From an uncultured Lachnospiraceae bacterium (GTDB lineage Bacteria > Bacillota > Clostridia > Christensenellales > UBA1242): a stretch of DNA of 64,000 bases. The stretch is taken from contig CAYTHL010000002.1 of assembly GCA_964437615.1 (NCBI GenBank), forward strand, positions 62 through 64,061, in the 5' to 3' direction. The notes below the pieces were generated by a model that was not told the DNA's origin, searched no databases, and worked only from the letters and a program-made list of their open reading frames with translations. Both the position numbers and the translations under genes were made by a program. Positions 36,252 to 64,000 of the stretch are shown in pieces. Positions within the stretch are counted from its first letter, which is position 1. The number at the start of each line of letters is the position of its first letter.

Positions 36252-36310
36252 AAAAACGCAAAATGGCTATTAAAAAATGTTAAAAAGTATTAATTTTTGT
36301 TAAATTTTAC

Positions 36311-38770: not shown

Positions 38771-38779
38771 GCCACAAAT

Positions 38780-38839
38780 ATATCAAACAAATTTTAAAAA
38801 AGAGCCAAACACTGACAGCATTTTTAAAATAATTTTTGC
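38780..38839 (-). promoter_or_regulatory. Cluster-specific promoter-like motif, site A
   Basis: Minus strand AAAAATTATTTTAAAAATGCTGTCAGTGTTTGGCT, 20 nt, TATATT, 6 nt, ATG (38770). The upstream 33 bp are ~94% identical to site B. Confidence 0.5.
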
Positions 38840-38932
38840 TAACAATAAAAACAAAAAATTCTGCTTAAATTGACAAATTTTGACCAATTTTTCATATTTT
38901 GCAAGCATATTTTGCAGTTTTTTAAAATTTGC

Positions 38933-40375: not shown

Positions 40376-40501
40376 ATTTGTTCCCTTGTGTTTTATTTTT
40401 TGCAAAAATAATCAAATTTACGTCAATATTAGTCAGTTTTACATAAAATTTTTATACTTTTTTCTATATTTTTACTTACTTTATTATGCTAAAATGCAGT
40501 T

Positions 40502-41494
40502 ATGAAAAGAAAATTCGCTAAATTTAAGTCAATTTTTGTAGAAATTACTGCATTTTTTGTTATTTTTTGTTGTCTTTTTGCCTATTTTAGCCCATTTTCT
40601 GCCAAAAATGACAAAAATGAAACAAATGCGGCAGAAAACAAACTTGTATATGCCAAGGCTAAAGAAAACTGCATACTTTATAAATCATCAAACCTAGAAA
40701 ATAACTTGACTAATGAGTATTTTGATATTCCGCTAAGTTATTTTGTTACCATTTTGGCCACCGTAAGTGACACCGTTTATAAAGTAAGTTATAAGGAATT
40801 TGTGGGTTACTGCAGCGCAGACAACTTAACAATTGTAAGTTTTACTCCTAGCACCTCGACTTTAGAAAATATTACTTTTGACATATGCTCTGATGCTGGA
40901 ACTCAAATTTGGAGCTTACCTAGTGACCAATCTGGAAACAAGTTAACTACTGTTCCTGCAGACACGCTTTGTTTAGAATATATTGCAAGTATCACGGGCG
41001 AAATACCCAGTGGTGGTACCACCAATCTTTGGTATTACGCTAGGTATACCCCAGCAAGTTTCAGCACCAAAGTTTACGAGGGATATATTTATAGTGAGGC
41101 TGCAACCAACTTAACCCATATACCAACCAATTTGGAGCAAGAAAATGAAGAAGTAACGGCGCCACCCATTGATGGAACAATAACACTAAACACCACGCTT
41201 AGAATTATATTGCTTTGTTTAATCTGCCTGCCATTTTTGATACTATTTATTATTACTGTAATAAAAAGTAGACGCAGCTTTGCTCATAAAAAACAGGCTA
41301 AACAGCAAGAAAGCAAAGCAAGCGCAAAAGTTGTTACTTTGCCACAAACTAGCGCAAAAAAGCCAAATTTAGATAGTCTTGCAAAGCGCCAATTTGTAAA
41401 AAAACCTAAACCCACAGAGCCAGTTATGGACGACGACTCTATAGAGATTGTCTTTCCCGATTATAGTTTTGTGGATGATGACGACCTATTGTAA
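40502..41494 (+). CDS. Bitopic membrane protein with two SH3b-like repeats (opposite strand to the cluster)
   Basis: 330 aa. N-terminal signal anchor and two ~70-aa segments resembling bacterial SH3 domains (...ILYKSS...YKVSYKEFVGYCSADNL; ...WYYARY...YEGYIYSEAATNL). C-terminal TM, then a K-rich tail ending in an acidic stretch. Extended -10 TGCTAAAAT lies 6 nt before the ATG, and there is no SD. Confidence 0.5.
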   Translation: MKRKFAKFKSIFVEITAFFVIFCCLFAYFSPFSAKNDKNETNAAENKLVYAKAKENCILYKSSNLENNLTNEYFDIPLSYFVTILATVSDTVYKVSYKEFVGYCSADNLTIVSFTPSTSTLENITFDICSDAGTQIWSLPSDQSGNKLTTVPADTLCLEYIASITGEIPSGGTTNLWYYARYTPASFSTKVYEGYIYSEAATNLTHIPTNLEQENEEVTAPPIDGTITLNTTLRIILLCLICLPFLILFIITVIKSRRSFAHKKQAKQQESKASAKVVTLPQTSAKKPNLDSLAKRQFVKKPKPTEPVMDDDSIEIVFPDYSFVDDDDLL

Positions 41495-41533: not shown

Positions 41534-42169
41534 TTATTTACAGCATTTGGTTGCATTTGCAATTAGGTTTTTGTAATTTTGCTTGCAGTGTTCCAGCATC
41601 CAACCCTCGCGTTCCATTTGACACAGCAAAAATTCTATACTCCAATTGCTAGTTTTACAAAAATCCAAAAGTTGCAAAAGAGCATCGTTTGCCCACCTAA
41701 AAACGGTGCGCTCGTCAACATCAAATTCTTCTGAAAGATAGCTTGTTCTTTTATGTTTATAAAATTTTAACTTAACCACCTCTTGCAATTTGTGCGGCAG
41801 GCTTGCAACCATAGTATCTATTAGACAATACAAATTAATTAGGCTAACTTTGCGGTCGGATAAATCTATAACCGACTGCATTTGGCTATACGTTCCGCCA
41901 GATAAATCTCCAAAAATAAACGAACCGTCTAGCGGACTGCTGGCTTTTTGCGCAATAATAGTGTCTACCACCTTTATTATGTTTGGCAAATTGTCATGAA
42001 CATTTAGCAGCGTTTTAATTATTGCCAAATGCTTTATTTGCAGGGTAGTTAAATCTTTTAAATTTTTACAAATTTTGCTATTTTTTGCAGTTTTTACGCT
42101 GTTTTTCACAAAATATTCTCCGTTTTTGCAGTTTTTTGCTATACTATTTTTTGTTAATTTTTGTATCAT
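41534..42169 (-). CDS. Sigma-70 region-4-like / phage late-transcription regulator candidate
   Basis: 211 aa. LPHKLQEVVKLKFYKHKRTSYLSEEFDVDERTVFRWANDALLQLL resembles a sigma region 4 / ArpU-RinA-type HTH. Strong AAGGAGA SD. First gene of the cluster. Confidence 0.45.
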   Translation of the reverse strand: MIQKLTKNSIAKNCKNGEYFVKNSVKTAKNSKICKNLKDLTTLQIKHLAIIKTLLNVHDNLPNIIKVVDTIIAQKASSPLDGSFIFGDLSGGTYSQMQSVIDLSDRKVSLINLYCLIDTMVASLPHKLQEVVKLKFYKHKRTSYLSEEFDVDERTVFRWANDALLQLLDFCKTSNWSIEFLLCQMEREGWMLEHCKQNYKNLIANATKCCK

Positions 42170-42340: not shown

Positions 42341-42356
42341 TAGAACAAATGTTCTA
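42341..42356. promoter_or_regulatory. LexA (Cheo/SOS) box
   Basis: TAGAAC-AAAT-GTTCTA has perfect 6-bp palindromic arms and matches the Gram-positive GAAC-N4-GTTC consensus. It lies in the divergent spacer between the cluster regulator and the giant ORF. Confidence 0.6.
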
Positions 42357-42585
42357 TACAAAATTAGCACATAAAACTGGACACCGTTATGTCTAGTTTT
42401 AAATTTTTTTAAAAAATTTTTTTGAAAAAATGTAAACTAAACGGTAGTTTGCAGCAAAACAAACTGTTTGTAGCTAAGGCAAATAATTTACAAGGCAAAA
42501 TAAATTAAAAAACTTCAAAATAATCTACAAGATTTTTTTATCCATTATTTTTTTATAAAAAATAACAAAATGTGCTAAAATTGTT

Positions 42586-42613
42586 TTGAAATTTTGCCAA
42601 GGTATGTTAGAAT
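42586..42613 (+). promoter_or_regulatory. Candidate sigma-A promoter of the giant ORF
   Basis: TTGAAA (42586-42591), a 16-nt spacer, then extended -10 TGTTAGAAT (42605-42613), ~70 nt before the ATG at 42683. Confidence 0.4.
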
Positions 42614-42682
42614 GTTTTTATAATATTAGTATTATTATTTGGGCAAAAAACCAAACTAAAAATAAGCTAATTTGGGGGCATT

Positions 42683-45600
42683 ATGTTTAACAAAAACCGC
42701 AATCTAAAAAATAACAATTGTTCAGGCTTTAGCCAAGCAAACACATGCTGCACAAGTACTTTGGCAGAAAGTAAATGTGCTAGTATTGGCTTTGGCACAT
42801 GTAGCAATGTTGGCACTAGTAGCAAAAAAGCCAGCAAGGCAAAAACTGCAAGGTTTAAGCTGGGCAAGTGCTGCCTTATGTTTGCGGCCCTACTCTTTTG
42901 CGCCATTGGTCTAACTGCGTGCAGCTGGATATCACAGTCTACTAGTGCTGGCTCTACAGAATACGACTCTGACGGAAGATTGCGTATTGCTAGCACAAGT
43001 ATTCTTTTAGATAGCGAAGGCACCGACGGCTCGGTAACCGACACCACTGGCTCCTTTTATTGGCTAATGAGCTATTACATTAATAGTAGCAACTCTAATT
43101 TTACATACAGCAACATGATGGACCAATCGGGTTATACCACACTAATATATACAGATGCAGAAGGCAATAACTACCCTAGCAGTATGGTAGGATATTACAA
43201 CAGCGGCGAACGCGTAATTAGAGAATATACAAATTCTAATGGCGACACAGCATCTGGAACTATTACAATTAATAGCGCTGGATATTACTATATTGCTGCA
43301 GACCAGACGGGTGTTAAGGCCATTGCTGTATCTAACGATTATTATCTGAAGGATATAGGGCTAGTTGCCGCCAATGGCCAAAATTTAGGCTCTAATGGAC
43401 AAATTCCTGAAAAAAATAGTATTAGCATTGTCTACCCATACTACAATGTGACAATAGACGGCATAATCACTCAAATTAAAGTTGCGGTGGAATATTCTGC
43501 ACTAAAAATAGACCTAGCTAGCGACCCAAGCAGCAGCCAAGCCAAAATCAACCCGTTAACTCTTGCAACCGACCAAAATAGCAACACTGCCGACATAAAC
43601 GATGTATTTACATTTTCTTACAGGTCTGGCACATCTGGAGATTGGACAGAATGCACTTCGGGCATGGCTAGCGCCTTTGTGGGCGAAGATGGCGGATTTT
43701 ACCTTAGGTTTAACCCAAATTTAAACAAGGGGTCTACCACCCGCTCTATTAGGCTGCAATCTATAACCAAAGAGAATGCAAACAGCGACGCCAACGCAAA
43801 CCGCGGCAACTCTACCATAAACTCGCCGGTATCTTTTAGCACCTACAAGCTTACTTTTACATCTAATGTAACTAACTCTAGCACAGCTACATTTGAGTCT
43901 TTAAGTTACGATGAAGACCAATACTATTTTGCTGAAAAAACCAGTGCCATTAACACTGGCATTTTGGGTGCTAGCACAAAAAATCCTAACGGCATAAACT
44001 ACTACACCACTCTAACCGGATATTTTGTTAGCGGCAGAGTTGTAGATGTAAGCAAATATGTTGTTGCAACATCAACAACTAAAGACGGCGTAACCGACTA
44101 CAGCTACACGGGCGACTATGCTCTGCAACCTTGGACGCTTAACGGCAAAGCCGAATATTCTACTATCTACAAGCAAAGTTTGCCACTGCTTAGCGAAAGT
44201 AACCCAATAGCTTTTGATAGTTCATTGTATATAGAAAATGACAAAAACTGCGTTTCTTACACGGCGCTTAGTTTGGGCGTTGGGCAGTCTATTTTGTATG
44301 AAGATTACCCAACTATTTACACTTACCTTTCTACCACAACTAACCCTTATGCCGAAACAATTGACAGTTTTACCCTTAACCCTTCGGCTACGGGCAGCGA
44401 CACAACCGGCACAACTTACTTTGTTTACAAAGACACGCTTAGTGTGGTGGCATGTTCTTTGGTTGCGTCTGGAACCTTTTATGGCAACATTGCTAAGGTT
44501 AAAAACTTTGTTTCTAGCGGCACAATTTACGACGGCGACAAAATGTTTTCTTCTGGCAACACGGCAAGGCTAGACGGCTACTATATTTATGTCTATCAGC
44601 TGGCCCAAGACTCTACACTGGCCGATATAGATATTGGCAAAGATAATTTGCTTATTTACTATAAACCAAACTCTACAACGGGTACACCAACAGCCAACTA
44701 CAACGCCTATAAAGAAATTTATGGCGACATAATTTTATCTGATAACACTTGGACAAACGGATATTTTAGCCTAAGCAATTTGGCATACAACTGCTATGTT
44801 GTATTTATGAAAGAAGACACGGTTACTGACGAAACAGACAAAACAAGCGAAAGTTTTTACACCTTCTATTCGGCCAGCATGACCAAGATAACTGAAGAAA
44901 CCTACGGGTTGCAGCCACTAAAGAGCTACCTATTGTATTCTGACCGCACTGGCAACGCCGTAATTGCTACCATTTATGACGCTGCAAGCAAAGTTCAAGT
45001 TAATATTTATGTAATAAACTCTACAAATTCCAGTGTTATTACAGATATTGACGACACTCAAATTTCTTACCAAGTACTTAGCACAACCACTACAGCCACA
45101 GACGCTTTTGGCTACACAACTTCTACTGTAATTATATCCTTGCTTTTGCAGAGCAACACCACTTTGGTTGGATACAATGTAGAAACAGTAAATAGTATTG
45201 GTCAAGTTAAATATGAAGCACAAAAATCAGACGCAAACTACGACTACATTTTGCTAGATATTGGCTACAATAGCAACACCACAACCTATGGCGACTATAT
45301 TTACACCTACTATGGCGTAACAGAGACAACGGTTGTAAAAGATGTTTCTTCTGGCGGCACTCTTAACTGCTTGATGTACAATGACGAATATTATCAGTAT
45401 ACAAAGAAAGACTCTGATTCTAGCGGCGTAAATTACTATTACGAATGTCTAAATAACACTGAGAACTCTTCTAAAACGCTAGTTAAATCTGTATCTGCTA
45501 GCACTACCACCTATAAACTTTACACCTATACAAAACTAGAAAATGTAGCAACAACACAGACTACAACTGAGTCTACATCCGGAGATACTGTTACTGTTAG

Positions 45601-48600
45601 CTACATAATTACTTACAACGGTTATAACTACGGCGTAAACGGCAACACCAGCACTGCCAATAACATAGCAATTTCGGCTACGGCATACAAAGTTCCAGAG
45701 TTTAAATATACTATTAGTTCAGAAAATTCTGATAGCACTTTGGATATGTATGTTTACTACGATGTAGAGGCTTACTACAACAGTAGCACTAGAGAGTACG
45801 AATATTACTACACTGCTCCGCTTGGCAAACAAACTTATGACGAAACCGAATCTAAAATTGTAACTGTATGGTACAATAGCGAGTTTTATAGCAGCAACAT
45901 AAATAGCCTTATAGATAACGACATAGATGACCTTATAGATTACCAAGTTATGCTTGGCTCTGATATAATTAAGAAAATAAGTGGTAAAAAAAGTATTGTT
46001 TTTAATTCTGGCAAAGAAAACGAATATACAAGCAATTTTGACAAGGTAACAAACAGTGGCGTAAGTTTGCTTGCAGACCACTACTACTATGTTGGCAAAC
46101 TTGGGAATCCTGTAAATGTGCTAGTTTCTCAGTATATAAACACTGACGCAAGTTCTACCGAAGAATCAACAATTATGTACTATGATAATAGCACAGGCGA
46201 ATATGTTTACGAGCAAATTTATTCAGAGGTGGCTTCGTATAGTCATGTAATTTATGCCGTGCTTTATAATGACGCTTACTCTCAAAGCTACCAGTACTCA
46301 TTTGGTTATAATGCAGAAAATAAAGCACTTACAACCACCGACGAAAATAATGAAACTAGCTACTATTATAGTTCGGCCAACAGTAAAGGAGGCAGTAGTA
46401 TTACACTTTACTACCAATCAGGATTAAATTCTTCTTTTAGTACTCTAACCTTATCTATCACAGATACATCTACCACAGATACATCTGCCATAGATACAGA
46501 TGACACAGATACAGATGGCACAGATACAGATGAAACCAACAATTCTGAAAACATTGAAAACATAAAGAATTTTGTAAATCAAATACACAATAACTCTTTT
46601 GTATATAATGCAACAGTTGAACAAGTCACAGGCGCCGATTATTATTACTTAAAAAATTACGCTGGGCCACAATTTGGTTCAATATCCAGTACTATGCCAT
46701 CTATTATGTATACCAGCTACACCTATTATTTTTACTCTAGCGATGCAAGTGCCAATGGCAATGTAAATAGCTTTGCTATATTTATTGACCAAAACGGTGA
46801 CTATTATTACTATGCTAACGATACTATACAAGTTGAATCTGAGGATGAGGAGGGCAACATCTCATCAAACTTTTATTTAAAATTAATAAAGTTAAAACTA
46901 AACAGTGGTTATTATGGTGTTGAGGTAGTTGAGGTATCACACAACATATTTATACCAATTATTACAAGCGGTGGTAAATTTGTAACCAGTTTTACGCTGG
47001 GCAGCATAAATTACACAGCATATGTGTCTAGGCATTTCTATGCCATAGATGCTAACCAAACAAGTTTAAGTAGCGCAATACCATTGTACCAAGGTTTAAC
47101 TTCTGGCAGCAACACATACATACTAAGTTCTGATACACCTACGCTAAGCAACACTAATTACAATTATTACTACCTTGTTGGTGAAAGTGAAACAAAACAT
47201 TATGTTGTAAGCAAAACCGTAACGGCTGTTTTAGCAAACTCTACGGGTACAGTTGTTAGGCGTGCCGTTTTAGCCTCTAATACGGCGACGGATATAAACC
47301 TAATTGGAAAAATTATACAAAGCAGTGATACCTCCATTGTCTACCCTAGTTTTAACTACTACCTAGATATAGGCAGCTCTCAAATTTTGGTAGCCGATGC
47401 TTTTGATGACAGCGTTGAATACTTTACCGTAGACTACACCACCAAAGACTCGGTTGTAGAGGCTTTTCCGGGTGTAAAGCTGCTTGCTGGCGCCCCTTAT
47501 GCAAACCCTATATTCTATTTTCAGGTAAAGCACAAGGCTGACGAACAAGCCGTTGTAAACTTTGGCATAGAGGTTGCCAACGCTTACTATGTAGAAGTTT
47601 TAACAAATGCCGTAACTTCTACCACCACCAACCTAATTTACGATTTTGAAACAGTAAGCTTTAAAGACACCATAACCAACCTTACATCTAACGACTACAT
47701 AGACCAAATGTATTATGTTTTGCAAGCCGACACTCTTGATACTGTAGTTGCCTATACAAAGCAGGAAAACTTAACTGGGTCTTGCCCGACCATTGACTCG
47801 GAAGGCAGTGGTGAATACCATGTTTATGATGCAGCTGGAAAAGAGATTTATTGGTACCATTACCATGATGGCTTGGGCATAGAAACTCTCTATGATTGTG
47901 TCAATAAAGAATATATAGTAATAAGCAAAATTGCTGACTACATATTTTATCCAGATAGTGGCAACTATTTTTATGTAAATGTGTACAACACTAGCGGAAG
48001 AATAGAAACTGTATACCAATTTAGAAAGGGTACAAATGAAATTGAAGCCATTTACACCGAGTACTTATCTGGAAGTTATTTAACCATACAAAACATAAAG
48101 GTGTATGACGACGACAACTATGTTTATTCCACCAATTTAGTTGACGAAGACGGCAAGATTTTGGTTAACGACCAAGGCAGGTATACTCAGCAGCTTTACT
48201 ATATAGACCCTACTTTAGGAAAAATTGCGCCACTTATAATTTACAAGGAAAACGCCGACGGCTCTTTAGGAAGCATCAATCTTGTTATATGGGAAAGTTC
48301 GGCAACAGGTATAGAAAATGTCCCTACTTTTGACGCGCATTCTTACTATGTAACCCAAAGCGGAATTGTTATGCTAACATCCGACGGCGCCATAAACGAA
48401 ATTTGCGAAAAATTGGACAGTTTGTTTACTAGCGGAATTGGCTCTTCTATAACCAACTACGATTACAGCGAAGTTTTAATTGGCGGGCTAACCACAGCAT
48501 ACAGGGTAAATGCAAATGACCTTAACTCTATAAACACATTGTCTACAAACGCTAACGACTTGCAATCTTACTGGTGGGAAGACGCAATTAATATTTCTAA

Positions 48601-51600
48601 TGCTTACAACTCTACCGACCCGTACTTTTTATGCGGCAAAGAAGGTGTTGTACTTTTAGCCAACCCTACTGTTGTTTTATCGGACGAAAACGACGGGGAT
48701 ATAATTTATCAATTTAAATATTGGATGGTATTTAGCCGTTACAACAGCAATATTTTGTACTACAACAAAGAGGTAACCGAAGGCTTGGCAGATAGAACCA
48801 ATTCGGTTTGTAGGTTTACTTCGGCAAACGCTGGATATTACATTTTTGTGCCAGTATACGAAAGAGTTTATTCTGTTAGTATTGGCACGGCTGTAGAATA
48901 TGGTGCCAACAACCTTGGCGGCGGCGTTAACATCTATTATGCTGATGGCAACAGTATAAACCTAACCGAATCTAGGTACGGCGATGACGCTGACGAAATC
49001 TATTTTGCACAAATAGAGCCAACCACAGTAAACGGCGTTACAGCTTATTATTACAACAACTTAACCATTACACCATATTTCTACTTTACTGGCAAATTTA
49101 TAACAACAGATGGATACACCTACCCAGAACTAAAGGTAGAGGACAATATATTTAGGTATAGATACACTTTGCTTGGTGTAGAATACGCCAAGTATTACCA
49201 AATAAATGTAACGGGTGCAACGATAACTGCAGAAGAGATTAGCGTTATAACAAACTTTGTATATGGCGAAGCTGGCATAGTACTTATTTATGGCTCAGAT
49301 GGCGAATATAGTTACTACTATAATCGTACCGGTGACTATAATGTACAGACAATCTCCGGAGAGCTTACAACGAGCAGGTACTATGACAAATTTGCATGGC
49401 AAGCCGATAATGACACTAAAACTATTATTGACTACATGAGTTACATGTACAATATAGACTACTACACCGACGGCGTTTTAAGTTATCTATCTGGTTTAAC
49501 AGAATATGCAGACCGTTATCTTAAAGACGGCATATCATTAGATTCTAAAATAGTTTATTACAACAAAACAGAAGGTGCCTTTTATGCATACGACACCCTA
49601 AATATTCAAAAAAACATTTCTTTAGACACAAGTTTAGGCACAAGCAGCAATTTGGCAAGCTGGTTTAAACAATATGGAGAACTTTGCGCAACTAGCATAA
49701 TTAAAAACTTTAATGCCATACTAAATGCGCCAGCATCTACTACAACAGTAATGCCAGACTACAATTACACTAGCGCAAACAATCTTGCCAGCGGAGAACT
49801 TTACTATGCCGAAGACGGCTCGGTTAATATTACTCAGCAGTACAAAACAAGCTACTACACGCGCGACTCTCAAATGGTTCTTTCGGCGGTTGCTGGCTCG
49901 GGCTACAGGCTAGAGGGCTGGTATCTTTCTACTTACAATGCCTCAACCAATAGTTGGGTAGTTAGTTCTAGCGATATCACTACAGAGTTGGGCGTTACCT
50001 ACACCGACGCCATTTTGGAGGTTGTGTATAACCAAATAGACTTTAACTGGTACTATGTAACTAGTTATAGTCAACCGATAAATGGCTTTACATACTATTA
50101 TTATGATAAAGAAAAAACTCAACTTGCTATTGTGCCAAGTTCTTTGGTGGATGACGTTGCCGGATACTATATTACTTACACAGAAAATGGCATAACATTT
50201 TATCAACAACTCTTCCGCAAAAGCCTACTTTCTACAGAATACTACTACGACCAAACATACTCGGTAGCCTACGATGGTCTTCAGACACCTAAGCTAATGA
50301 GCCACTACGAGGCTAAAACTGAGGTTAACGGCAAATACTATATTGGCAGCACCCAGATTTACAAAAATGGTAACACATATTATCGCACTATGAATGCGTC
50401 TAACTTTACTGCTACCGGAAATAAGCTATTTATAACAAACTTGCACAGCAATATTAGGCTTGTGGCTAAGTTTATAGAGGTTTATCAAGCCATGATTTTT
50501 GCCGAAGACAGTTCGGCGGAGAACATTCAAATTGTCTCGGTTTACTATAATAATACTAGTGGTAAGGGCTCTGCTGTAAGGTCAGATTCTTCCGGAAACC
50601 AAATTGTTGCTTTGTCTGCGTCTGTAACCGGCTTAAATAATAATGGGTTTACAACATACAAGTTTACAACAAACATTCAAACTGATTCTGGCTACGACTT
50701 TGATGTTAATGGCGGCAACATTAGCATAAACGATTTTAAATATAATTACGGTAACAACAAATTAACTGATGATTATTGGCAAGGTGTAATAGATAACGGC
50801 AGCTATATTGGCGGAACCGAGTTTAACTATCTTACTGTAGAAGATACCGGCCTAAACAGAGTTAACGAAGAAAACCTTAATTTAAACACCATGTATTTTG
50901 ATGTTTACAACAGCATTTACGTTGTTGTAAGGGTTTATTATACTCAAAAGTTAAATATACACTCTTTGGGTTTAAATTCAGCTTACACTTTAACTCCGGT
51001 GTTCTACCCTACAGAAGAATATATAGACGAAGTTGTGGCTGATGAAGATAAGAGTGTTAATTACCTTTACTACATATTTAAAGTAACATTCGACCGCGAC
51101 CTTGCCGACTATGTTGGTACAACAACAATAGGAGAAGGCGAAGAAGAAAGCGAACTAAAATACACTCTTGCTTCTGACTCTAACTACAATAGTGAGTATG
51201 TTGTTCATGTAAACCGCGGCAAGTCTTTATTTGCCGACGTCATTGATGGCGACTACACATATTTCTATTCTAACCTATTTGGCTATGTAGACTGCTTTGG
51301 GCAAACGGTTGAGTTTACTGTAAGCCAAGAAACTGGCAAAATTACCTTTAGTTCTGATTATTTAAGCGCTTTGAAAACCAACTTGGTAAACGCTGGCGTA
51401 AATCACCTTGCAAATGACACCCGCCTAATAGATACTTACAACTGGGACAACATAAAAGATTTAGCCGAGTATATTAGAAAAACTTATGGTTACAACTTTA
51501 CTATGGCTGGGGTTATAATTAAGGAAATTAGCGAAATTACTGAACCTATAGCTGGCATAACAACTACCACTGCAAAAGCGCTAACGGCTAAAAATACATA

Positions 51601-54600
51601 CGAAGAGAAAAATTACACCAGTTCTTATACAGAAATAATTAATCAAATTAACCTATATTTTAAAAATCAGACTACTAAAATTACTACTCCACAATTAAAT
51701 GGTAGTACTAACTTTATTAATTTTTCAACTATACCAGTATATATTTACACGGTAGGCATGGCAGTTATAACCGACTCTGTTAGCACTGTAAAGTTTGACG
51801 AAGCTGCCCTTGAAAAACTAACCGGAGACTACATTACTGCTGGATATCCATCCAGTGTACAGGAAGAAGAAGATGATGATATTACCGATTTTGGCATAAA
51901 TATTTCTTCTTCACTTTATACGCGCGGTGGAACCAAGGGCTACACCTACATTGGTGCAGGCACACAAACTAACAACTTGTCTGAACCTATCTTGGGTTCA
52001 ACCTACAGCAGCAGATTTGAAGATGTTATATTTGACAACACCGATTTTGCACTTGCCGAAAACACTATTATGGTGTTAGAGGGCTTGGAAATTTCAGATG
52101 AATATTACTGGTATTATAAAAATAATGTTTGGTATGTTAGTTGGACCGAAGACTCCGAAACCTACACATATAAATTTTTAGGCTGGTACGAGCAAAAATT
52201 AATGAAAGGCGACGACGGCGTCTACCGCTGGCAGGATTATCAATTTATGTCAGCAGACCCTGTAAAAGGCTTTGCTAGCAGCGCTGTTGCCGACACCAAT
52301 ATTTTGGCAATATTTGAAAAAGTTGTAAACTTTACTGTAGAAGGCACTAAAAATAACTTTACAATTAATCTAAACTCGTCTGGCGACAGCTTAAACAACG
52401 CAGTAGTAGACCTTTCTGACGACGACACCACTTCTTATTCTGGCGACTACACCATTTCTTCTGATATAACCATGGCTATTACGCCAACTGGTGGCTTTAG
52501 ATTGTCTAATAACTGGACAATTACTGTGCCGGGCTTAGAAAACCACACAACTATAGATGTTTCAAAACTTGACGATATATTCTCTTACAGCCAGTATGAC
52601 GCGGACGGAAACCTTGTTTCTAAAGAGGGCTACGCCGATGTTGTGCTAACCGATACAGTATTTGTTAGCTTTAACTTAGATGCCCTACTAAGGTATATTT
52701 ATAGTGATACGTTAGAAGTTGCCGAAAACGCAGAAGGCGACGAGGACGACGAAGACAATATTATAAGATTTGCTTACGGAAGTGGATACTTTGTTAACAA
52801 CGAAGGACAAGTTATAGACCCAATTTCTAGCCTAAAGATTGAGCTAGAATTTAAGGAAGTTGTGCTTGTAACCCTTAGCGTTGAGGGGTATTTATACACA
52901 GACGGCGACGATATAACACAAAGCTCTGGTTACAACTTTAGTTTGGTTAATGTTGATGGCGAAAATGGCAGTTATACACTTACTAGGTACTTTTTAACCC
53001 AATATGTAGCACCAGAAGAAGGCGAAGATCGTGGCAAGGTTGTTAACGCTTTGGAGGAAATACTAAAAGACAGTGCCCAGCGCGAATTCTTGTTTGATTT
53101 AAACGGCAACAATCTGCTTATTTATGGCTACTTTGATGTAGAACTAAACGGGCACTTATTTGTACAAACTATTGCAGATGATAGTGACGCAGCACAAGCC
53201 GCCACGTTGCAACAATGGTGGTTAAACGGATACTATACAAAAACTACTTGGGGCTATAATAGCGACAGCCTTGGCTTTTACAACTACTCTAATGATACCG
53301 ATTACGAAGAGGTGTTTGGCACAACTAGTGGAGGCAGTGGCGAAGAAGGTAGCGAAGAAAGCAATATTGAAGAAATAAATGTTGACGAAGGCGACGAAGA
53401 AGGCGGCGAAACAAGCAATGGCAATATATTTGATTACAACAATTTAGATGTTTCTACATTCCATGTGTTCTTTAAGTATCTAGAAAATAATGGTACTCCA
53501 TTTGCAACTGGCACTGACGGCATAACCGACGACACTATTGAAATAGGTAATTTAAATGATGAACTATTTAAAACCTCGTTAGACAACCGCGGATATTTGT
53601 TAGAGTGCCGAATAACCAGAGTTAGCACCCTTAAAATTGCCTACATTTCTATAGACTCTTTGGCGGCCCTAGAAGATGAATTTACATTAACAAACAATTC
53701 TGCAACAAATAGTTCTGAAAATGTTAACTATATAGACCAAAATGGCTTAATTTCTTGGACGGGTATGCGCTACACAATCGACGAGTACAATGTCTACACA
53801 GAAGTATCGGCAAACGACAGCTTAAACCTAGACTTAACGGCTGAAGATGGGGCAACTAACCAAATGTGTTACTCTACCTACTACTTTACAAACACAACTT
53901 CAATTACCCTTAGCAATTTGGCGGACTACACCACTATAAACAATACCGTGTTTATGTTTGTAGGCTGGTTTAAAGTTACTTCTGGTTTAACATCTAACAA
54001 CCCTGCTTCTGGTGGTTCGCTAATTTATAGCACCACAGATAATGTCTATCAGCCAGACACTGGCGGCTCTTATGTTGCTGTGTTTGTTAAAACCGCTACT
54101 GTAACAAAGGTTGTTACAGACTATCCAAACGGTACACTGCAAGTTAACACTACTCAGCCAGAATTCTCTTATACAAGTTCTGACCAAGTTGACTGCACTA
54201 TTTATAACCTAGAAAATGTTATGTATATTAATAACGCAATGTATGCAATGATTGGCTCTACCATTAGTGCCGATGTTTCTGCTAACCCAGAATATGTTAT
54301 TAAAGATGTAACTGCCACTTATAGCATTGCCACTTATAGCGAAGATGATGAGGCTACAATAAGCATGCTTACTGACGAAAATAGAAATGCAAACAGTGCA
54401 ACTGCAACCTTGCTTGTAGAAGACACAACTTACCGCATAATAGAGGCCGAGTTTGAACTTGGTTATTTAGTAGAGGTAGAACAACTTTACTACATTAGTT
54501 CTGCAATGAACGGCATTGGTGTGCAGTACAGCAGCGAAAATTTTGTTACAATAACCGATAACAACAACAATCAAACATATAATGCAACAAACACAGAAAA

Positions 54601-57600
54601 TAATAGCGTAAACAGCTACACTTTTGCCACTGGCAGCAACCTTACAATTACATTTACAAACACACCTAATACCTACGGCATTATTGGCTTTTATATAGAC
54701 GGCGTAAAACAAGATTTTACTTATGACGCCGAGAACAATACCTACTCTATTACAGTATGCATTAACAAGCACACCATAATAGAGGCCAGATTTACTACGT
54801 TTGTAAAGGTAATAGTAACAACAAAAGTTTCTGGCTCAACTGTAAACTCTGATAATTACACTACTAAATTTACTTACACAGATCCATATTTGAATGAGCA
54901 AATTACTATATCAGACACAGATACACAGTCAAGTAACTACTATGTTCTTAGCGGAACACTGCTTAATATGAGCACTTCTACCGAGTTAGAAAATGTCATT
55001 TTTGACAGATGGTATGGAAACACCGTGACAAATGCAACAAGCCCTAGTAATTCAGACTACAGCACCAATCCGCAATACATACAAGTTGTGTCTGCAGATA
55101 GCAGTATTACCCCTGCCCGTAATTTTGCTGTTGCAAAGGCAACTGTCCACAATATTTATGCAAACTATCTAAAAAATTACAAAGTAACTATTACAAAGGA
55201 ACTTTTAAGCTACAATATTCAGGATATTGGATACATAGACGAAACAACTGACGAACCTACTTCTATATTCTGGTCTTTGCTAGATGTAACTATTACATAC
55301 ACAGATCAATACGGCAAAAATCAAGAACTTCAAATGGGGTCGCTAAAAGAAATTACCATAAATGTAAAATCTGGCACAAAAATTACAATAACATCCAACT
55401 TGTCTGAACTTGTTGCAAACAGATATTCATTCCTTATTTATAAACCTATTACTACTTTAGTTGTAGGTGACGAAGATGATGGATTGTACGAAGCCTATCA
55501 AACTATTAATGAAGTAACAGCATTTACTGTTAAGTTTTCTGCAACACGCAATCTAACTTTAATTAGGCAAGTAAATAATATAGAAAGCCAAGATAACGCT
55601 GGATGTTTAGATGTAGGATATAGAGCTAGCCAAAACGGAGGAGCAAGTGTAATAACAACGCTTGGCAATTACAGCCACTTGTTTGTAAAACTATTCAACA
55701 CAACATCTATTACAGTTTATGCGGCTAATGCAGAATCAAGCGGCTATATATTTGCAGGATTTTATATTAATGGCGTAGCAGTCGGCACTGGAACTCTCAG
55801 CGATGGCAACTGGCAACTAAAAATAGTTGACGGTGAAGGCGAAAATACAACAGATACCTACTATACCAAAGAAAGTGACCTTTCGGTTGTGGCGCTGTAC
55901 TATATGCGCACCACTATTATTACTGCTGTGTCTGTAGACGGCATAGACGGCACCTACGAAACAGACGGCCTTAACGGAAACCTAAAGTTTACCCTAATAG
56001 GCAACCGCATAAGCGACGCAAAAACTTCTGAACTTGGCGGCATATATTACAACACTGATGTTCAAAGCCTTACAGTTTCTATGCTAAAAAATGGCAGCAC
56101 TCATTACTACCTTAGCGGAAAAACTTTGGGGCTTGTGGCAGATAGCTACCAGGGGTATCAGTTTGAAGGCTTCTACTATAAAGTAGGCCTTAGTGGCACT
56201 TGGGCAAAATTGAGTATGAACACATCTAGCGAATACTCCTATGGTGACACGCTTTCGGCTATATTAGAAACTAGCAAAATGATAACAACCATAAATGATG
56301 CTACTACAGTTTACATTAAAGCTAACTTTTTAAGGGCTAGCAATGTTGCTGTGCAAGTATCTTTCTTAAATAGCTACAATTCTAAAATTACATCTTGTGA
56401 AGTGCCAGAAGTAAACTACCTTAAACTTAATGCAAACAATAATGATATACTAGAAACTTCAACTTACTTGCCATATAACAGTTCTACTACAAGCAAGTAC
56501 TCAAACGACAACGAATTCTACTTTGCCCTATCCACTTATGTTGGCTTTAAAATAAATACCAATTACGACGATTACTATGTTTACAACATATACATTAACG
56601 GCAAAATTTACAATGGCGGATATTCCTATATTTGTGGCGGATATAAATATTTGGTGCTAAATTTAGCTAGCTATAGCAAGCCAGACAATTTTAACCAATA
56701 TGACGCAAACACCAGATACAACAACATAATAATTGATGTTAGACTTGTAGAGGTTGTAGACTACACTATTCGTGTAAGCGTTTACGACACCGAATATTTA
56801 GCAAATATAGAGGCTCTTGGTGTAAATTCCTCTTTAAATAGATACGCTGTAAAAGTTGATTACACCACTATTTCCTATCTTTCAACCTTTGGTGGCTTGC
56901 TTAGTTTAAATGCTAGTTCGGCTGCAAATAGCCAAACAGGCAACTTTATTCTATTGTTTACAAGTACTGACAACATAAGCGGAAGTTATAATACTAATGT
57001 TGTAAGTGTCCGTAACGGCGTGCTTTATGTAAATTTAAAACTGCCTATTGGCTCTAAAGTTAGCGCCGAACTTACAGATTCTGATGGCTATAGTCTAGCC
57101 CAAAACCCAACAATTAGCGGCAACGACAATAATACATACACATATGCTGGTTGGTTTGCATACAATGGCAGTTCGCTTGTTGGCTCTACTTCGGTTATAA
57201 ACTACACTAGAGAGCTAAGTTTCTATCTTGCGCAAGACACCTCGGTGGTTGCAAGATTTGACGCCAATGTTTGGGCTTACACCTACGACACTCAGTACTC
57301 ATATCAGTTTAACGGAACTAATTTTGGTGGCAGCAAAACATTTGCTTCTACTGCAGTCCCTGGCATAAATAGCGACACAATTGCTCAGCAAATAACCGAA
57401 TATTTAAAGAGCTTAAACACCAATACTGGCATTACAAATACATTTGAATATAACGGCAAAAAAGAAGCCGAAACCTATGAAAGCATTACATTGATACTTA
57501 CTGGGCTTGGCAACAATTTGTACGAAATAGACTACACATACGAAAACGACAACGATACCTTGTATTCTGGCAAGTACACCTTTATGTTTATGGGCTGGTA

Positions 57601-60600
57601 CCAAGAAATTAGGGACTATCGAACAGAAGAAAGCCGTGTTTACATGCTTGCTAGCACTACCCTAGAGTTGGGCAACAGCGCTAATAGTCTACTATCTGAC
57701 GCAACTAGCCTTACCGCAGTGTTTACTCAAATTGTAGATGTAAGGCTAAATCAAGACGCAATTAATACTGTTTACTACAGCCGCCTTGCAAATATGTCTA
57801 ACACAACACTACCATTAAATTTAAACAGCAATGACACTGTTATTGGCAGTAGCTTAGATATTTATGGAAATCTTAATATATATGCGCTTTACACAAGCGG
57901 CATTGCTGTAAACGGCTTTGTAAACTACGGCTACTATAACAGTGCAGATGATAATACTCTGGATACAATTAAAGAATACATCACCTACCAAATAGTAAGT
58001 ACCCTTATAGATACAGAATATCTAGTAACTTCTAGTACAGCCGACGACCCAAATGTTGAGAGCAAGGGCAATGTAACACAAGGCGACGCTAGCGGTAATC
58101 AAGTTATTGTAGTCAGCAACAATGCTATTGTCTATTTGTTTGGTGAAAAGCCAACCACAGAAAATTTTGAAGAAATTAAAATTTATCATACATTGTACAA
58201 CTACACAATAAAAACGCGCAACAACATGCTTTACACTATGACGGCAACTGCAGCGCGCGTTGAAACTGATGACGACGAACCAGAAACCGACGACGAGCCA
58301 GAAGTTGGCACAAGTTCGCTAAAACTACTAAATTCTGGGGCAATTGTTGCAACTTCTGGCAGCAAACTTGTTGCAACCTCTGCTACTAAACAACAAAATG
58401 GTGGGATAGAAGCTTATGCCGCCGCCGACAACACTGGTACAGAACAATATACATCTAACACAACAAACTCTGGCTTTGAAATTGGTATAGATGATGATGC
58501 GCCAGACTTGTTTGTGTATATTGGCGGAAGATTAATCGCGCCAAGTTCTGGCAACGACGACGCCACCATAAAAATTGGCGTGCGTTACCCTAGTGGCGAA
58601 TCTGTAGAGCTAAATTTAACTATTGACGACAATACTGGCATACTTTATGTAACAGACGAAACCGGTACCATGGTAGACCCTGCCGAACTTGCCGCACTGC
58701 CAGAAGGCACTCAAATAACATTATCTGTTGTTATGTCTACTTCTCCTACTGTGTTGCTAAGAAAAATAGTTTTATATATGTTTAAAACAGAAAATGACTG
58801 GGAGAATTATATTAATAGCGGCACCTTGCCTGCGTCTGCTGGCTATATATACTACGCCTCAAATGATAATACTGGATCTCAGATAATTAGTATCAAATTA
58901 ACTAACGAAAATAGCATTTCTATTTCTAGTAGTCTTGTAAATCAAAACTCAACAACCTACCCTTACTTTGCTTTTTGTGTAAACTTTGTAAACAACTACG
59001 GCATAGAACTTAAAGAAAACGAACTAGAAAAGGGCAATGTAGGTATTTCTTATAACAATTCGGAACCCTCTATAGATAGTGGCTCGGTGTATGATGTTAT
59101 TATTACCGACTCTGACAGTTATGCTTTTTCCGATTTAACCATACAAGATACAAAAAATTCGGAAGATTCGCTTTCTTCACTGTATGATTTACTATCAAAG
59201 TTATTAGAGGACCAAACAGAATATAGCGCAACTAACCTAAGCGATTTGGTGCTTGCAATACAAAATGCTTATGGTGCCGAGGAAGACCCAACAACATATA
59301 CCTTTGAAGATAATTACTGGACAAGCATTTGTTACAATGCTACCGAAAATATGCCATTTACTTTATACTCTGCTACCGGAAGCCTTACCATTAAAATCAA
59401 TTTTACTTTTAATAGTACCAAAGATTATATTGGTGGCAGTTACATTACTAAAGCAAGCTTTAAATTTACCATAAACAGCAACATAACAATAATTACCAAA
59501 TACGAGCATGTATCTAAGGTAAATGTTTATTTAACAACCGAGGGCTTTGACGCCAATACAACCGGCTACAAAAAAACCGACAGCACAAGTGTTGGCATTT
59601 TGTACATTCAAGATTATCAAATATACACTTTGGATAATAATAGCAAATACGAAGCTATTAACAAACTAGACAAGGTTAGAGAAAAATATCTTAGCACCCT
59701 CTCAGATAATCTTGATGCTGAATTTGTGGCGTACTACTACGAGGGCGGCAAACTTGCTACCACCGGAAGCTACACTGAGGGCAACGACGGCATGCTAATT
59801 ACTGCCGGCGAAGAAGACACCACCAGTGAATACAGCAAAGTTATACAGGAAATTTTAGGTAAAACAACCTATTTATCTGCTAGCACGGTTAGTGACGTTA
59901 TTAAAATAGAGATGCTATTTGTTGCAAGAGTAACCCTTTCTGTTGGTGCAGATACACTATACTACAACCCTATCCCAGAAGAATACTATAACGAAAACGA
60001 AACAGTAGAAGGCTATATGAACCAAAACCTGCTAAATACTCCGCTATATGGAATGCTTTATACTAACGAAAGTTTGGTTGAAGCAACAGAACAATACAAC
60101 AATACTGCTGTTTCTTTCTACTATACAGATAATAATTATTCTGATGTATCGGGTGCATTAAGCGTTTCTACCTTGCTTAGCGAACCAACAACACTTAAAC
60201 TAAATGACAAATATAGCTACTTTAGCTTTTACAAGTGGGAAGCCTTATACGACGACACCGTTGTTTACACCACCGAGGACAATATTTTGTTGTTAAGTTT
60301 TAACCTTATGGCGGATATTTGCGACGCAATTAAACAAAAAATTGAAAATATTACTACAATAGATATAACTAAAATTACCTTGCGCGGCATTTTAAAGGAA
60401 GAAGCCCTAACCACCATGCTAGAATATTCAGTTTCTGGCGAGGCGTTCACGGTTACCACTGGTAACGTTGATGCCACAACTGACACTGTAATTACCATTA
60501 TAGAAGATTATAAATATGAAAATACTGATGACTTTATATCTCTATATTACTATAAAAATCAAATAACTGATAATAACAATATTAACCTTGTGCTTGGGGC

Positions 60601-63600
60601 TTACATTTACGAGTATAATGCTGGCTCCAACACCACCGACTACAAGTTGGTTGTAGCATTTAGCAAAAATATTGCTAATGTAGCTAATGTAGCTAATGTA
60701 GCTTCAGATTCAGACCCAAGCTTTCATGTAAATGTAGTGGCTAGCAGCTATACTAACCAAAATAGCCAAAATGCGGCAAAAACCGACTTATTAAACAAAA
60801 ATTATGTTAGGTTGGTTAGCAATAGTGATCCTATAACAACAGCAGAAAATGTGCCTTTAACCTATTCTAATAATAAATATTATCTGCTAGAGGGCGTTAT
60901 AGACCAAAGCGGCATGCTGCAGTATTCTGATAGCAACAGCGTTATTAACCTTAATTATTCTGGTAACAAGTTAACTTGCTATGGGCTTGATAGTAGCAAA
61001 ACAAGTACACTTTTATCTAACGATAATAATAATGTTACAAACACCGTTAGATATGTTCTTTATGCAAGCAATCTAAACCTTATAGAGTTTGGCACGGCGC
61101 TGCCAACAGAAATTGGTTTATATGATGGTGACTTTACATTAAACATTACGGCTTCCGAAGATAATTTAAAAACTATAGGGGTATCTAATACTTCGCTAGA
61201 TTTAACTAATGGCAATTATGGTGCGCTAAGTTACTTAGTTAGAGAAGGCACACTAATAAAAGCTGAGCTAACCATGAACACCGAGAACACCACCTTATAC
61301 AACAACTTTAACTGCATAGCAATATCTCATAGCTTAATGGTTTCTGACCTGTATGCGTATTTCTATAGCGAAAATACACAAATTGTAAATGTAACTGATG
61401 TTAGTCTAGAAAACTGGCGCACCGCACTTGGCATGGAAGGCGATAGCAACGACAACGACTATTATCAAACCTTGCGACAATATTCCGACTACAGAATTGA
61501 TAGCAAGGCTACAAATTACACCTTTATTGCAACCGAAAATGTAAGCTTTATTGCCGACTTTATTAATCTGTTTGACGAGCAAAGGATGTATCTTACTGTG
61601 CTTCTTGCTGCAGACTCTAGCTTTAATTATAGTTTAGACGGCACAGCAAACGGGCTAAAAGAGTTTAGCGGCAAAAACTTTATAATAATAGTTTCTACCA
61701 AAGGAACCACATTTAACTTGACTCTAGATAGTATAGATTACCACTACTCTGCTACTGGAGAATATGTGGGCTGGGCATCAATAGATATTCCTTCTAGTAA
61801 TTCTACGGATGATGAATCGTCTTCTGACGGCAACGATAGTAACAATGTAGTATCTTACTATACCGGACAAAACATAGTAAAAATAGAAGAAGATAATAAC
61901 TTTTATATAACTATAAAACAACAAAACTATCAAATTGGTGTAGGCTTGGTTAGTAACAAATTTATAGATGTTGCGGCTTGGGCTACAGAAAGATATTTAA
62001 CTTTAAATGGAAAAAATACCAACAAAATAGACGAAGAAGGCAATATTATATACACCACTAGCTACGGATATAATTTGTTACTAGAAAACGGAAGCTTTGC
62101 TACGTCGCCAAGTGTATATGTATCTTCGAGCAGCGACATAGACGACGTATTAGAAAAATTAAGTGGCGTAACTACGGCTGAAGAATACACTGTAGATAGC
62201 TATACTGGGGCAACTTTATCTGGCACAGTTGCAATAGTAACAAATAAACTAAATAGCTCTGTATATTTAGTTGCGCAAGCAAGATATGGTTATTACTTTG
62301 GTGGCTTTTATGCAGTGTCGCAGTCTGCATTGTTAACACTAAATACAGACGAACAAAACTATAATAACACCTGTTCTGCTTACACCATGAAATACCTAGG
62401 TGGCGCTTACTACTTAAATGGCTCTAGTGATAACAGCACATGCACAACTAGAAAAAATGGTAGCACAACCTATTACTACTATTTGTTAGACAATGTTGAC
62501 GGAGATGTAGAAATTGTAGCTGTTTATGTACCTTTTGTATATTTATTAACCATTATAAACAAAGAGTTTGACGAGTCTGAAAATAGCTTAAATAGCGAAA
62601 ATATATATTTGGTGGACCCAGATGACGACGAAATTACAACTCAAGGTAAAGTTTATGCAGAAACTTTACTTATTACCGCTAATAGCTACACAGAACTTAC
62701 CATAAGCAGCAATGGCTATTCAGAATTTAAGGGCATTATTAGCGACGAAGAATATAATTTACAAGCAGCATATTCTCACGAAGAAATTAGCAAGGTAGAT
62801 ATAATTTATACAGATAACTCTACAGAATCTATTGATATAGACGGCTCAACCGAAAAAGACAGGGCCGAACAAATAATTAAAGCATTAAACAAAATATTTG
62901 ATGGAAGCGGTACTAAAAAAGATAATATATCTTCTTACACAATTACCTATACAAGTAGCGAAGATGGAAATGTGCAAACTGGGCTATTATCTACAAAAGA
63001 TGCTCGCCGCCTATTTCCGTTAGATTATTCAAAATTGTTAGCTGCAACAAATACTACTGCTCAAAACACCGACCCCCTTAGCTACATGTATCTATCTTTT
63101 GGCGATATTAATGAAGACATAACTCTGTATGCTTACTTTACATCCATTTATTACACGCTAGAAATAGAAATTGCAGAATTAGAGTCTAGTTATTACTACT
63201 ATGACGATACCACAAGTTATAACTATAACATTACTAGCAAAAATAACAATACTTACTATTTAAGTTATGCAAATGCCGACAGCGATGACTTTGTAAACCC
63301 TAGTGCAGATGACGACTATGGCATAGCAGAGGACGACCCTTATATTTACACATTCTATGATTGCGACGGCAAAAAACTTGCTAACCCAGTTAGAGTTACA
63401 GCAGCTATGGTAGAAAGCACGGCTACATCTGGCGACACTAGCAGCAATTATTTAAGGCTAATTCGCACCAATCAAGCTAACAACACCTACGAATATGCTT
63501 ATGTTGTTACTAAGCCACTTACATCTGGTAATAACTTGTATACATCAGATGTAAATGCCGAAGCAAAAACAACTAATTTGGTTTGTCTAGAAGATGTAAC

Positions 63601-64000: not shown

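Follow-up and report, generated by a model that had tools for sequence, protein, structure and literature searches.

A giant predicted lipoprotein of essentially unique sequence encoded beside a phage-derived island in uncultured Clostridia

Giant bacterial surface proteins are known, and nearly all of them consist of tandem repeats of recognisable domains. What, then, is a protein of comparable size for if its sequence is essentially unique over ~7,600 residues, and why does its gene lie where it does? These questions are raised by a stretch of 64,000 nucleotides (nt) from an uncultured Lachnospiraceae bacterium of the Clostridia (GenBank assembly GCA_964437615.1, contig CAYTHL010000002.1, positions 62 to 64,061 of the forward strand), the whole of which is called the window below. 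One third of it, 42683-64000 on the plus strand, is a single stop-free frame of 7,106 codons that is still open at the window end, and beside it lies a cluster of phage-like particle genes. We show that this open reading frame (ORF) is an intact gene under selection over its whole length and that its product founds an unannotated protein family. A preliminary description of the stretch had seen the phage-like cluster as a neighbour only; we found the two linked in six lineages, and consider this linkage the most interesting aspect of the locus. The pairing of the giant gene with an integrase-less island, which is probably under LexA control, provides a testable lead on the purpose of very large bacterial surface proteins, and likewise on recipient range or self-protection in the gene transfer agent (GTA)-like systems of gut Firmicutes.

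An intact gene and its one full-length relative

The gene and its start are placed as follows, with positions referring to the window.

42683..64000, plus strand: giant ORF, ~93% of a gene predicted to encode ~7,600 amino acids (aa), cut by the window end
42674..42678, plus strand: Shine-Dalgarno sequence GGGGG, 4 nt 5' of the ATG at 42683

The closest in-frame stop 5' of the giant ORF is at 42668. In the same DNA the other five frames contain 28-120 stops per 1,000 codons, so that an open frame of this length by chance is excluded (roughly e^-590). Synonymous codon usage is host-like, correlating at r=0.91 with that of the housekeeping genes of the window, the G+C content of which is ~37%. 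Both the translation and the stop counts bear out the single uninterrupted frame of the preliminary description, which was also correct that the mechanical ORF list misses it: that list leaves out frames running off the window, and this one passes the window end. Residue counts agree with the composition first reported, the product being rich in Thr (11.1%), Ser (10.1%), Tyr (9.3%), Asn (9.0%) and Asp (6.8%), with few Cys past the N-terminal leader (0.53% overall, 9 of the 38 Cys lying within residues 1-80). It is also acidic, with 12.2% Asp and Glu versus 5.4% Lys and Arg. The reported lack of long nucleotide-level repeats holds equally: the largest is an array of 15 nt x 4.9 at 46459-46532, and there are otherwise none of note. 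Genetic code 4, of the Mollicutes type, was considered and is unlikely: the giant frame is devoid of TGA, all its 42 Trp codons are TGG, and the RNase P RNA (19337-19676, minus strand, 236 bits) is of class A, as expected for Clostridia but not for Bacilli or Mollicutes.

When residues 3740-4939 were compared exhaustively by HMMER with 1.84 billion representative proteins, exactly one relative emerged, P0001, a protein of 7,776 aa. A word-indexed search of 5.8 billion protein clusters gave no match for aa 1-1500, aa 4801-7106 or a three-lineage N-terminal alignment, and the last 800 aa of the part within the window had none in GTDB genomes or IMG/VR. In BLASTP comparisons, residues 2-7083 of the giant protein align with residues 4-7241 of P0001 in two collinear segments, and a global alignment of the two has 42% identity, ranging from 23 to 69% in every 100-aa block. 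The P0001 gene is present on three ENA metagenome contigs, being unannotated and found only in ENA assemblies; two of these, from different samples and different assemblers, carry it as a 23,331-nt gene with the same DNA sequence in both. A third lineage from a human gut metagenome, L039, is open for at least 3,737 codons from its start codon, and matches residues 77-4067 at 25-44% identity. Selection has thus kept the gene open and collinear across lineages in which the proteins are 25-45% identical.

The collinear alignment reaches residue 7241 of the 7,776 of P0001, and therefore ~500-550 C-terminal codons are predicted to lie beyond the window, giving a total of ~7,600 aa. The suggestion that the true protein is larger than the part seen in the window is in keeping with this. 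The comparison of presence and length in relatives proposed along with it now comprises P0001 at full length, the partial frame of L039 and N-termini from six lineages. Where the window has the 15-nt array, the sole tandem repeat of the ORF, which encodes on the plus strand a Thr/Asp-rich stretch, TDTSTTDTSAIDTDDTDTDGTDTDE, P0001 has large insertions, and the repeat is probably a flexible linker. Genes of this kind escape callers that require a stop codon and are obscured further by fragmented assemblies, so that such families are probably under-counted.

Ends and body of the giant protein

At the N-terminus of the predicted protein two elements follow one another.

42683..42865, plus strand: Cys-rich N-terminal extension of ~60 aa (aa 1-61), ahead of the signal
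42866..42922, plus strand: lipoprotein-type signal (aa 62-80), consisting of K, a hydrophobic segment and the lipobox L-T-A-C

The signal, KCCLMFAALLFCAIGLTAC, can be written as K-CCLMFAALLFCAIG-LTAC and thereby has the charged n-region, the h-region and the lipobox with an invariant Cys that typify lipoproteins; the Kyte-Doolittle hydropathy peak falls at aa 63-81, and the predicted lipidated residue, Cys80, is encoded at 42920-42922. A79 and C80 are invariant columns of a three-sequence N-terminal alignment (A5). An equivalent signal segment with a Cys and a lipobox pattern is seen in all six known N-termini, the strict N-terminally anchored form of the pattern in two of the six. Export by Sec and lipid anchoring at Cys80 are hence predicted with good support. 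The Cys-rich extension is confined to the window and P0001, being absent from the N-termini of L037, L038, L039 and L040, and the window sequence offers no in-frame ATG, GTG or TTG nearer the hydrophobic segment. It shows the pattern CxxxxxxxxCC...C...C over 50-60 residues and could be a cytoplasmic metal-binding or regulatory tail.

The C-terminus of P0001 has two transmembrane (TM) helices, at aa 7693-7711 and 7720-7738, and a second membrane anchor is by homology predicted, again with good support, at the C-terminus of the giant protein outside the window. No LPXTG-like motif is present in the window part. The only one near the C-terminus of P0001, IPVTG at aa 7709, is not a sortase signal since it lies inside the first TM helix. 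Likewise, neither the window part nor the last 776 aa of P0001 matches the SLH, CW_binding or SH3b models of Pfam and NCBIfam. The preliminary description had envisaged adhesion or a surface fibril and had suggested a search for an LPXTG, SLH, cell-wall-binding or TM anchor at the C-terminus. Its surface location gains support from the lipoprotein signal in six lineages and the TM helices of P0001, adhesion as such does not; among the anchors, TM helices were recovered, in P0001 only, and the lipobox provides one at the N-terminus.

Two further observations concern this end of the protein. The ~450 residues before the TM helices of P0001 (aa ~7240-7690; L019 ~31700-33070) are Cys/His-rich and less beta-like, match nothing in Pfam or PDB, and may be a distinct functional head beside the membrane. 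The product of the gene 3' of the giant gene in L019 (33412-35364, plus strand; ORF650) is 650 aa long and repeats this layout in miniature, with AISGC as its lipoprotein signal and a TM helix at the C-terminus; it has an SH3_3 match below threshold, and the counterpart of its gene would lie past the window end.

Between its ends the protein resembles nothing known. On the window protein all Pfam and NCBIfam models fall short of E=0.01, the weak matches listed being far below curated cut-offs, and PDB sequences give no match at E<=1. Halves of the protein likewise had no match in these collections. Condensation, adenylation, ketosynthase, acyltransferase and carrier domains of non-ribosomal peptide and polyketide synthases are absent by Pfam and NCBIfam, and neither an HExxH motif nor multiple YD motifs are found in the giant protein. 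Two isolated YDxxG[RKN] motifs occur, with no Pfam match to YD repeats (PF05593) or the RHS core, and a single YD-repeat-like motif, YDSDGRL, lies C-terminal to the lipobox. The following segments could be delineated.

47252..49102, plus strand: best-conserved core (aa 1524-2140), invariant patches including FPGVxLLxGxPYxNP and SRYNSxxLYYN...PVYERV; no known domain
49748..50086, plus strand: GW module 1 (aa 2356-2468), motif YRLEGWY
52013..52351, plus strand: GW module 2 (aa 3111-3223), motif YKFLGWY; best pair module 8 (74%)
53327..53419, plus strand: acidic low-complexity stretch (aa 3549-3579), probable linker; >=40% D/E in 25-aa windows, in a low-identity, gap-rich block
53795..54133, plus strand: GW module 3 (aa 3705-3817), motif FMFVGWF
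54518..54856, plus strand: GW module 4 (aa 3946-4058), motif YGIIGFY; the modelled module, nine-stranded and all-beta
55589..55927, plus strand: GW module 5 (aa 4303-4415), motif YIFAGFY
56000..56338, plus strand: GW module 6 (aa 4440-4552), motif YQFEGFY
56981..57319, plus strand: GW module 7 (aa 4767-4879), motif YTYAGWF
57425..57763, plus strand: GW module 8 (aa 4915-5027), motif FMFMGWY
58256..58336, plus strand: acidic low-complexity stretch (aa 5192-5218), probable linker; >=40% D/E in 25-aa windows, block comparison with P0001
62135..62473, plus strand: GW module 9 (aa 6485-6597), motif YYFGGFY

In the core, the 100-aa blocks 1601-1700 and 1901-2100 reach 62-69% identity to P0001, and over the core alignment (A8) P0001 is 54% and L039 43% identical to the window sequence. 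Neither a three-lineage profile of the core searched against PDB nor per-sequence Pfam searches gave a match.

Internal repetition is barely detectable. A self-BLASTP of the giant protein gave no match, hidden Markov models (HMMs) of 114 two-sequence tiles produced two marginal off-diagonal matches, and an hhalign comparison of 57 tiles, all against all (1,596 pairs), reached a maximum probability of 56%. The five best tile pairs all contain a GY-F-G[WF]Y motif, and tiles with this motif are related at 28-56%. A tandem array of a recognisable domain, of the RTX/BIg, Ebh-like or Bap-like kind, was not found. These three comparisons favour the preliminary proposal of an old, diverged multi-domain protein over a recent repeat expansion, and the HMMER and Pfam searches that it recommended returned no known domain and, among the 1.84 billion proteins, only P0001.

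The motif defines nine segments, the GW modules listed above, each kept at the same place in P0001. They are supported by conservation of the motif in P0001 and by pairwise hhalign, and modules 1-3, 5, 6, 8 and 9 also by the comparison of tiles. Pairwise hhalign probabilities among them reach 74%, as against a maximum of 1.7% for control pairs. With an alignment of 18 paralogues, AlphaFold2 modelled the 113 aa of module 4 as nine strands, at a mean predicted local distance difference test score (pLDDT) of 80.1 and a predicted template modelling score (pTM) of 0.65. A Foldseek search with this model recovered no match at E<=0.001 in PDB or BFVD. An HMM built from the nine seeds detected no further copies in the giant protein, and its leave-one-out test was marginal. 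The GW modules are old copies of a single beta-sandwich module that have strongly diverged.

The GY-F-G[WF]Y motif suggested the Listeria-Bacteroides, or InlB B-repeat, family, an idea that fold comparison did not bear out. Flg_new_2 (PF18998) is the Pfam family matching most of the GW segments, i.e. 3 of 18, with a best E=0.0038 that is below threshold, and on the full giant protein it has no match at E<=1. A GW profile searched against PDB had as its top sequence match the isolated InlB B-repeat 2y5p (E=0.057), while InlB is absent from the top 50 PDB matches of the module 4 model in Foldseek. The identification of these modules as bona fide InlB B-repeats was dropped because a good model gave no significant fold match. 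All sequence scores were below the family thresholds. What the GW modules share with the InlB B-repeat and Flg_new_2 is the GY-F-G[WF]Y ... h-A-h-F signature; they differ in their length of ~113 aa, their nine strands and the lack of any significant fold match.

The ~6,000 residues outside the GW modules are unique sequence. A 1,200-aa tile modelled by AlphaFold2 from a two-sequence alignment had a pLDDT of 31 and was unusable as a structure; its DSSP assignment was nearly all strand. There is good support for the inference that the ectodomain, of ~7,500 residues, is mostly beta and made of modules diverged beyond recognition.

The neighbouring island and the region between

The phage-like particle cluster that had been noted directly beside the giant gene is indeed there, with a BhlA holin, a major head protein, a P22-like portal and a large terminase among its products. 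The features of the island, and of the 513 nt (42170-42682) that separate it from the giant gene, are as follows.

25150..40405, minus strand: podovirus-like structural and lysis module (terminase, portal, scaffold, head, virion/tail proteins, holins)
40502..41494, plus strand: ORF330, a single-pass membrane protein with a C-terminal DDDDLL tail (alignment A9, six lineages)
41534..42169, minus strand: sigma-70 region-4-like regulator gene, divergent from the giant gene; homologues in six lineages
42342..42355, unstranded: LexA box (Cheo-type) AGAACAAATGTTCT, conserved in six lineages with 0-2 half-site mismatches
42372..42401, unstranded: hairpin with a GACAnC-N4-TGTC core, then a T-run; conserved, between the LexA box and the giant-gene promoter
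42586..42613, plus strand: promoter-like TTGAAA-16-(TG)TAGAAT of the giant gene, with an extended -10; position and form kept in all six lineages
42652..42659, plus strand: CAAACTAA element in the 5' leader, exact in five of six lineages; variant CAAAAACTAA in L040

The module encodes a large terminase, a P22/SU10-type portal, a scaffold, a major head protein, virion and tail proteins, and holins including BhlA. No integrase domain or replication gene was detected in the window ORFs scanned against Pfam, nor were integrase or replication genes present among the called genes of L019, and the sigma-like gene is alone in resembling a regulator, none of the genes being recognisable as a phage repressor. 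The element thus lacks the integrase, repressor and replication module of an active temperate prophage; its genes are confined to head, tail and lysis functions, and it occupies a fixed site with the marks of vertical inheritance, as in GTAs and PBSX. The sigma-like protein matches the Pfam model Sigma70_r4_2 at E=6e-4, below the family threshold, and PHROG 36, a transcriptional regulator, at E=4e-7, along with weak NCBIfam sigma-70 matches. ORF330 always lies between the terminase and sigma-like genes on the opposite strand and matches no family in Pfam, NCBIfam or PHROG; an IMG/VR scan with its alignment gave no new complete instance. Its ectodomain has an invariant YAKxKxNC...GYxYS, its C-terminal tail reads FP-Y...DDDDLL, and a -10-like box only ~8 nt before the ATG suggests that its mRNA may be leaderless.

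The left 25 kb of the window are housekeeping genes, for RF-1, PrmC, a DinB-type polymerase, GlmS, GlmM, MgsA, a U32 peptidase and RNase J. The RNase J is 68% identical to that of a Clostridia metagenome-assembled genome and 47-48% to those of Eubacterium nodatum and E. minutum. L002, the genome in GTDB that comes nearest, has housekeeping proteins 67-68% identical to those of the window, and in it homologues of the last three recognisable genes of the module, at 1-3112, abut RNase J. The gap to RNase J is ~42-45 nt in both, and the next ~11 kb are syntenic. This shared junction and synteny point to an old, vertically inherited island instead of a recent prophage. Judged by its genes, the module looks like a domesticated island of the GTA, PBSX or FpGTA kind.

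The order of module, ORF330, sigma-like gene and divergent giant gene is the same in all six lineages with a sufficiently long contig (the window; L019/L020, with the module at 1-9404 of L019; L021, which equals L037; L038; L039; L040). These lineages are uncultured Clostridia and apparently gut-associated. The linkage holds where the sigma-like proteins are only 31-39% and the giant N-termini 25-33% identical. Module proteins of the window are 46-81% identical to those of L019. Between lineages, the capsid and terminase retain 68-81% identity, the tail proteins 29-39% and the giant protein 25-45%. Two IMG/VR contigs, L024 and L026, have a terminase 66-67% identical to that of the window and have neither the sigma-like nor the giant gene. 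In L024 (1-6600) and L026, ORFs of 541, 671 and 808 aa on the same strand replace ORF330 and the sigma-like and giant genes 5' of the terminase, and both contigs probably come from genuine phages related to the domesticated module.

The order of elements in the intergenic region, compared among the window, L019, L037, L038, L039 and L040, is also common to all. Three TGTC repeats, absent in L040, abut the ribosome-binding site of the sigma-like gene, and an ACTGACA element lies between them and the LexA box. This box, which had been described earlier as an SOS box separating the two loci, stands confirmed by its conservation in six lineages; the GAAC-N4-GTTC site within it has no second copy in the 64 kb window, the sole site in L019 is at the homologous position, and the box of L040 is perfect (CGAACATTTGTTCG). 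A GTCA/GACA motif pair 5' of the terminase (~40420-40445) resembles the intergenic motifs, and these elements together may be operators of an as yet unnamed regulator or promoters for the sigma-like factor. The window also encodes, at 5128-6435 on the plus strand, a Y-family DNA polymerase of the DinB/ImpB type, whose genes usually belong to the SOS regulon; the sole perfect site adjoins the giant gene and not this one, where a degenerate box was not searched for.

Readings of the locus and known systems

We consider it probable that the locus encodes a fast-evolving giant surface fibril or shield, tethered to the membrane and perhaps coupled to the GTA-like island. The product would be exported by Sec, cleaved within its lipobox (LTA|C) by signal peptidase II, and lipid-anchored through its mature N-terminus at Cys80, whereas its C-terminus outside the window would be a two-helix transmembrane hairpin by homology with P0001. 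An acidic, Tyr/Thr/Asn/Ser-rich and mostly beta ectodomain of ~7,500 residues would thereby be tethered to the membrane at both ends, as a chain of many beta-rich modules of which about nine still share the GY-F-G[WF]Y beta-sandwich signature. It would form a long surface fibril or coat with a role in steric control of access to the cell surface, as a shield and/or an adhesin. Functional coupling of the giant protein to the island may exist: its fixed position by the LexA-box and sigma-like regulator, combined with rapid divergence like that of the tail proteins, suggests that it might be a receptor for the particles of the island, or for related phages, or else a barrier against them.

Several points weigh against this reading. 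The giant protein has no detectable similarity to any island protein, and the conserved synteny could be mere inherited gene order in a small clade. The LexA box lies ~230 nt 5' of the promoter that belongs to the giant gene itself, which is of the sigma-A type, and a terminator-like hairpin intervenes; given this distance and the hairpin, the giant gene need not belong to the SOS/sigma-like regulon, and for the same reasons the LexA box more likely controls the sigma-like gene and thereby, indirectly, the particle genes. Confident modelling covers only 113 of the 7,106 residues, the larger tile having failed. The predicted second anchor is taken from one homologue, P0001, the window lacking its own C-terminus, and the giant protein is known from sequence alone, with expression, lipidation and surface display as predictions.

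The foremost alternative, a serious one if on balance doubtful, is that of an ordinary giant adhesin or envelope protein without a functional tie to the island, the neighbourhood having been inherited in a narrow lineage. The conserved extended -10 promoter of the giant gene and the terminator-like hairpin that separates this gene from the LexA box fit with it, as does the absence of any sequence common to giant and island proteins. Synteny with L002 extends to the left flank of the island, which indicates that the whole region is stable, and gut Clostridia are known to encode adhesin-like proteins of giant size (10.1101/2023.11.21.568195). However, the divergent gene pair uses one conserved regulatory region, and the gene order is kept in six of six lineages even where the sigma-like proteins are only 31-39% and the giant N-termini 25-31% identical, a divergence at which bacterial genes without a functional link have usually lost their order.

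A bolder reading is that the giant lipoprotein is a working part of the domesticated particle system, i.e. a receptor or self-immunity shield that selects cells for the SOS-induced particles, co-evolves with the tail proteins and is inherited with them as one island. The tail proteins concerned are those of 671 and 807 aa. We think this reading unlikely and offer it tentatively. The literature that we searched describes no pairing of a giant lipoprotein gene with a GTA-like island.

Quite improbable is a lysogenic-conversion or superinfection-exclusion lipoprotein carried as cargo by an active temperate podophage of ~43 kb, comprising the module, the giant gene and ORF650. IMG/VR classes contigs with the module and the giant N-terminus as viral, the closest cultured capsids come from phages of 42-47 kb, about the sum of module and giant gene, and small phage lipoproteins that block infection are known, such as Ltp of TP-J34 and Llp of T5. 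Yet no integrase, repressor or replication gene is found from RNase J to the giant gene, nor 3' of it in L019. The same tight RNase J junction recurs in a relative with housekeeping proteins only 68% identical, the true phage contigs L024 and L026 are without the sigma-like and giant genes, and none of 50,697 deposited phage genomes encodes a relative of giant-protein residues 1540-3539.

A polymorphic toxin or contact-dependent effector, in which the beta-rich stalk presents a C-terminal effector, has very little probability: the distinct Cys/His-rich residues before the P0001 TM helices, matching nothing, and the single YDSDGRL motif after the lipobox would suit it, but no RHS, LXG, pre-toxin or toxin domains were found, no small immunity-like gene follows (the next gene in L019 being that of the 650-aa lipoprotein), and TM helices C-terminal to a putative effector are atypical of such systems. 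Finally, an assembly artefact or a pseudogene without a full-length product is a negligible prospect, for although the organism is poorly sampled, the sigma-like gene of the window having its one other occurrence on a 1.4 kb Logan contig of the same sequence and the RNase J of this strain having no record, 7,106 open codons at 37% GC are not accidental, and the frame is collinear with the independently assembled P0001 and open in the third lineage, L039.

For the preferred reading of a membrane-tethered surface fibril or shield, known systems supply partial precedents. Ltp of TP-J34, Llp of T5 and Cor are likewise lipoproteins whose genes adjoin those of phages; they measure ~80-170 aa, belong to lysogeny or early modules of active phages, and act at the surface against incoming phage, whereas the giant protein is ~50x larger, and its element has no lysogeny module. 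With regard to the island, PBSX of Bacillus subtilis is DNA-damage-inducible and has a sigma-like late regulator, Xpf, to be compared with the LexA box beside the sigma-like gene here. FpGTA of Faecalibacterium is a podovirus-like GTA element in gut Clostridia, and DNA from its purified particles has been sequenced (PMC12946183). The island described here is, like both, a chromosomal cluster of head, tail and lysis genes without integrase or replication genes, and its proteins are of the podovirus type, as in FpGTA. The comparison is one of gene content, and the accessible text on FpGTA reports no adjoining giant surface-protein gene.

The closest architectural analogues of the giant protein are Ebh and Embp, which are likewise giant (~10,000 aa, ~1 MDa in staphylococci) and surface-bound proteins of Firmicutes with a signal and a C-terminal TM segment. 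In Ebh the export signal is N-terminal, and a transmembrane segment at the C-terminus takes the place of LPXTG as the anchor; the signal in both proteins is of the YSIRK type and not a lipobox. How well Ebh shields the cell surface depends on its size (PMC6548404). Embp consists of tens of recognisable alpha-helical repeats (PMC7587433), and so does Ebh. In contrast to these alpha-helical repeat proteins, which have no link to a phage island, the giant protein is predicted to be beta-rich, and it is non-repetitive and without a Pfam match. Giant proteins of 10,000-30,000 aa from Clostridia of mammalian gut metagenomes consist of repeated domains such as RCC1, the Listeria-Bacteroides repeat, the YG repeat and dockerin (West-Roberts et al., 10.1101/2023.11.21.568195). 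They share with the present protein its class, apparently its habitat, a very large size and a presumed binding function, and some carry Listeria-Bacteroides repeats, the family that the GW modules faintly resemble. They differ in that their repeats are recognisable, whereas here no domain scores over threshold and about nine weak modules are spread over 7,106 aa. Giant bacterial surface proteins as such were already known; the family is new, its sequence is unusually non-repetitive, and its conserved genomic partnership is previously undescribed.

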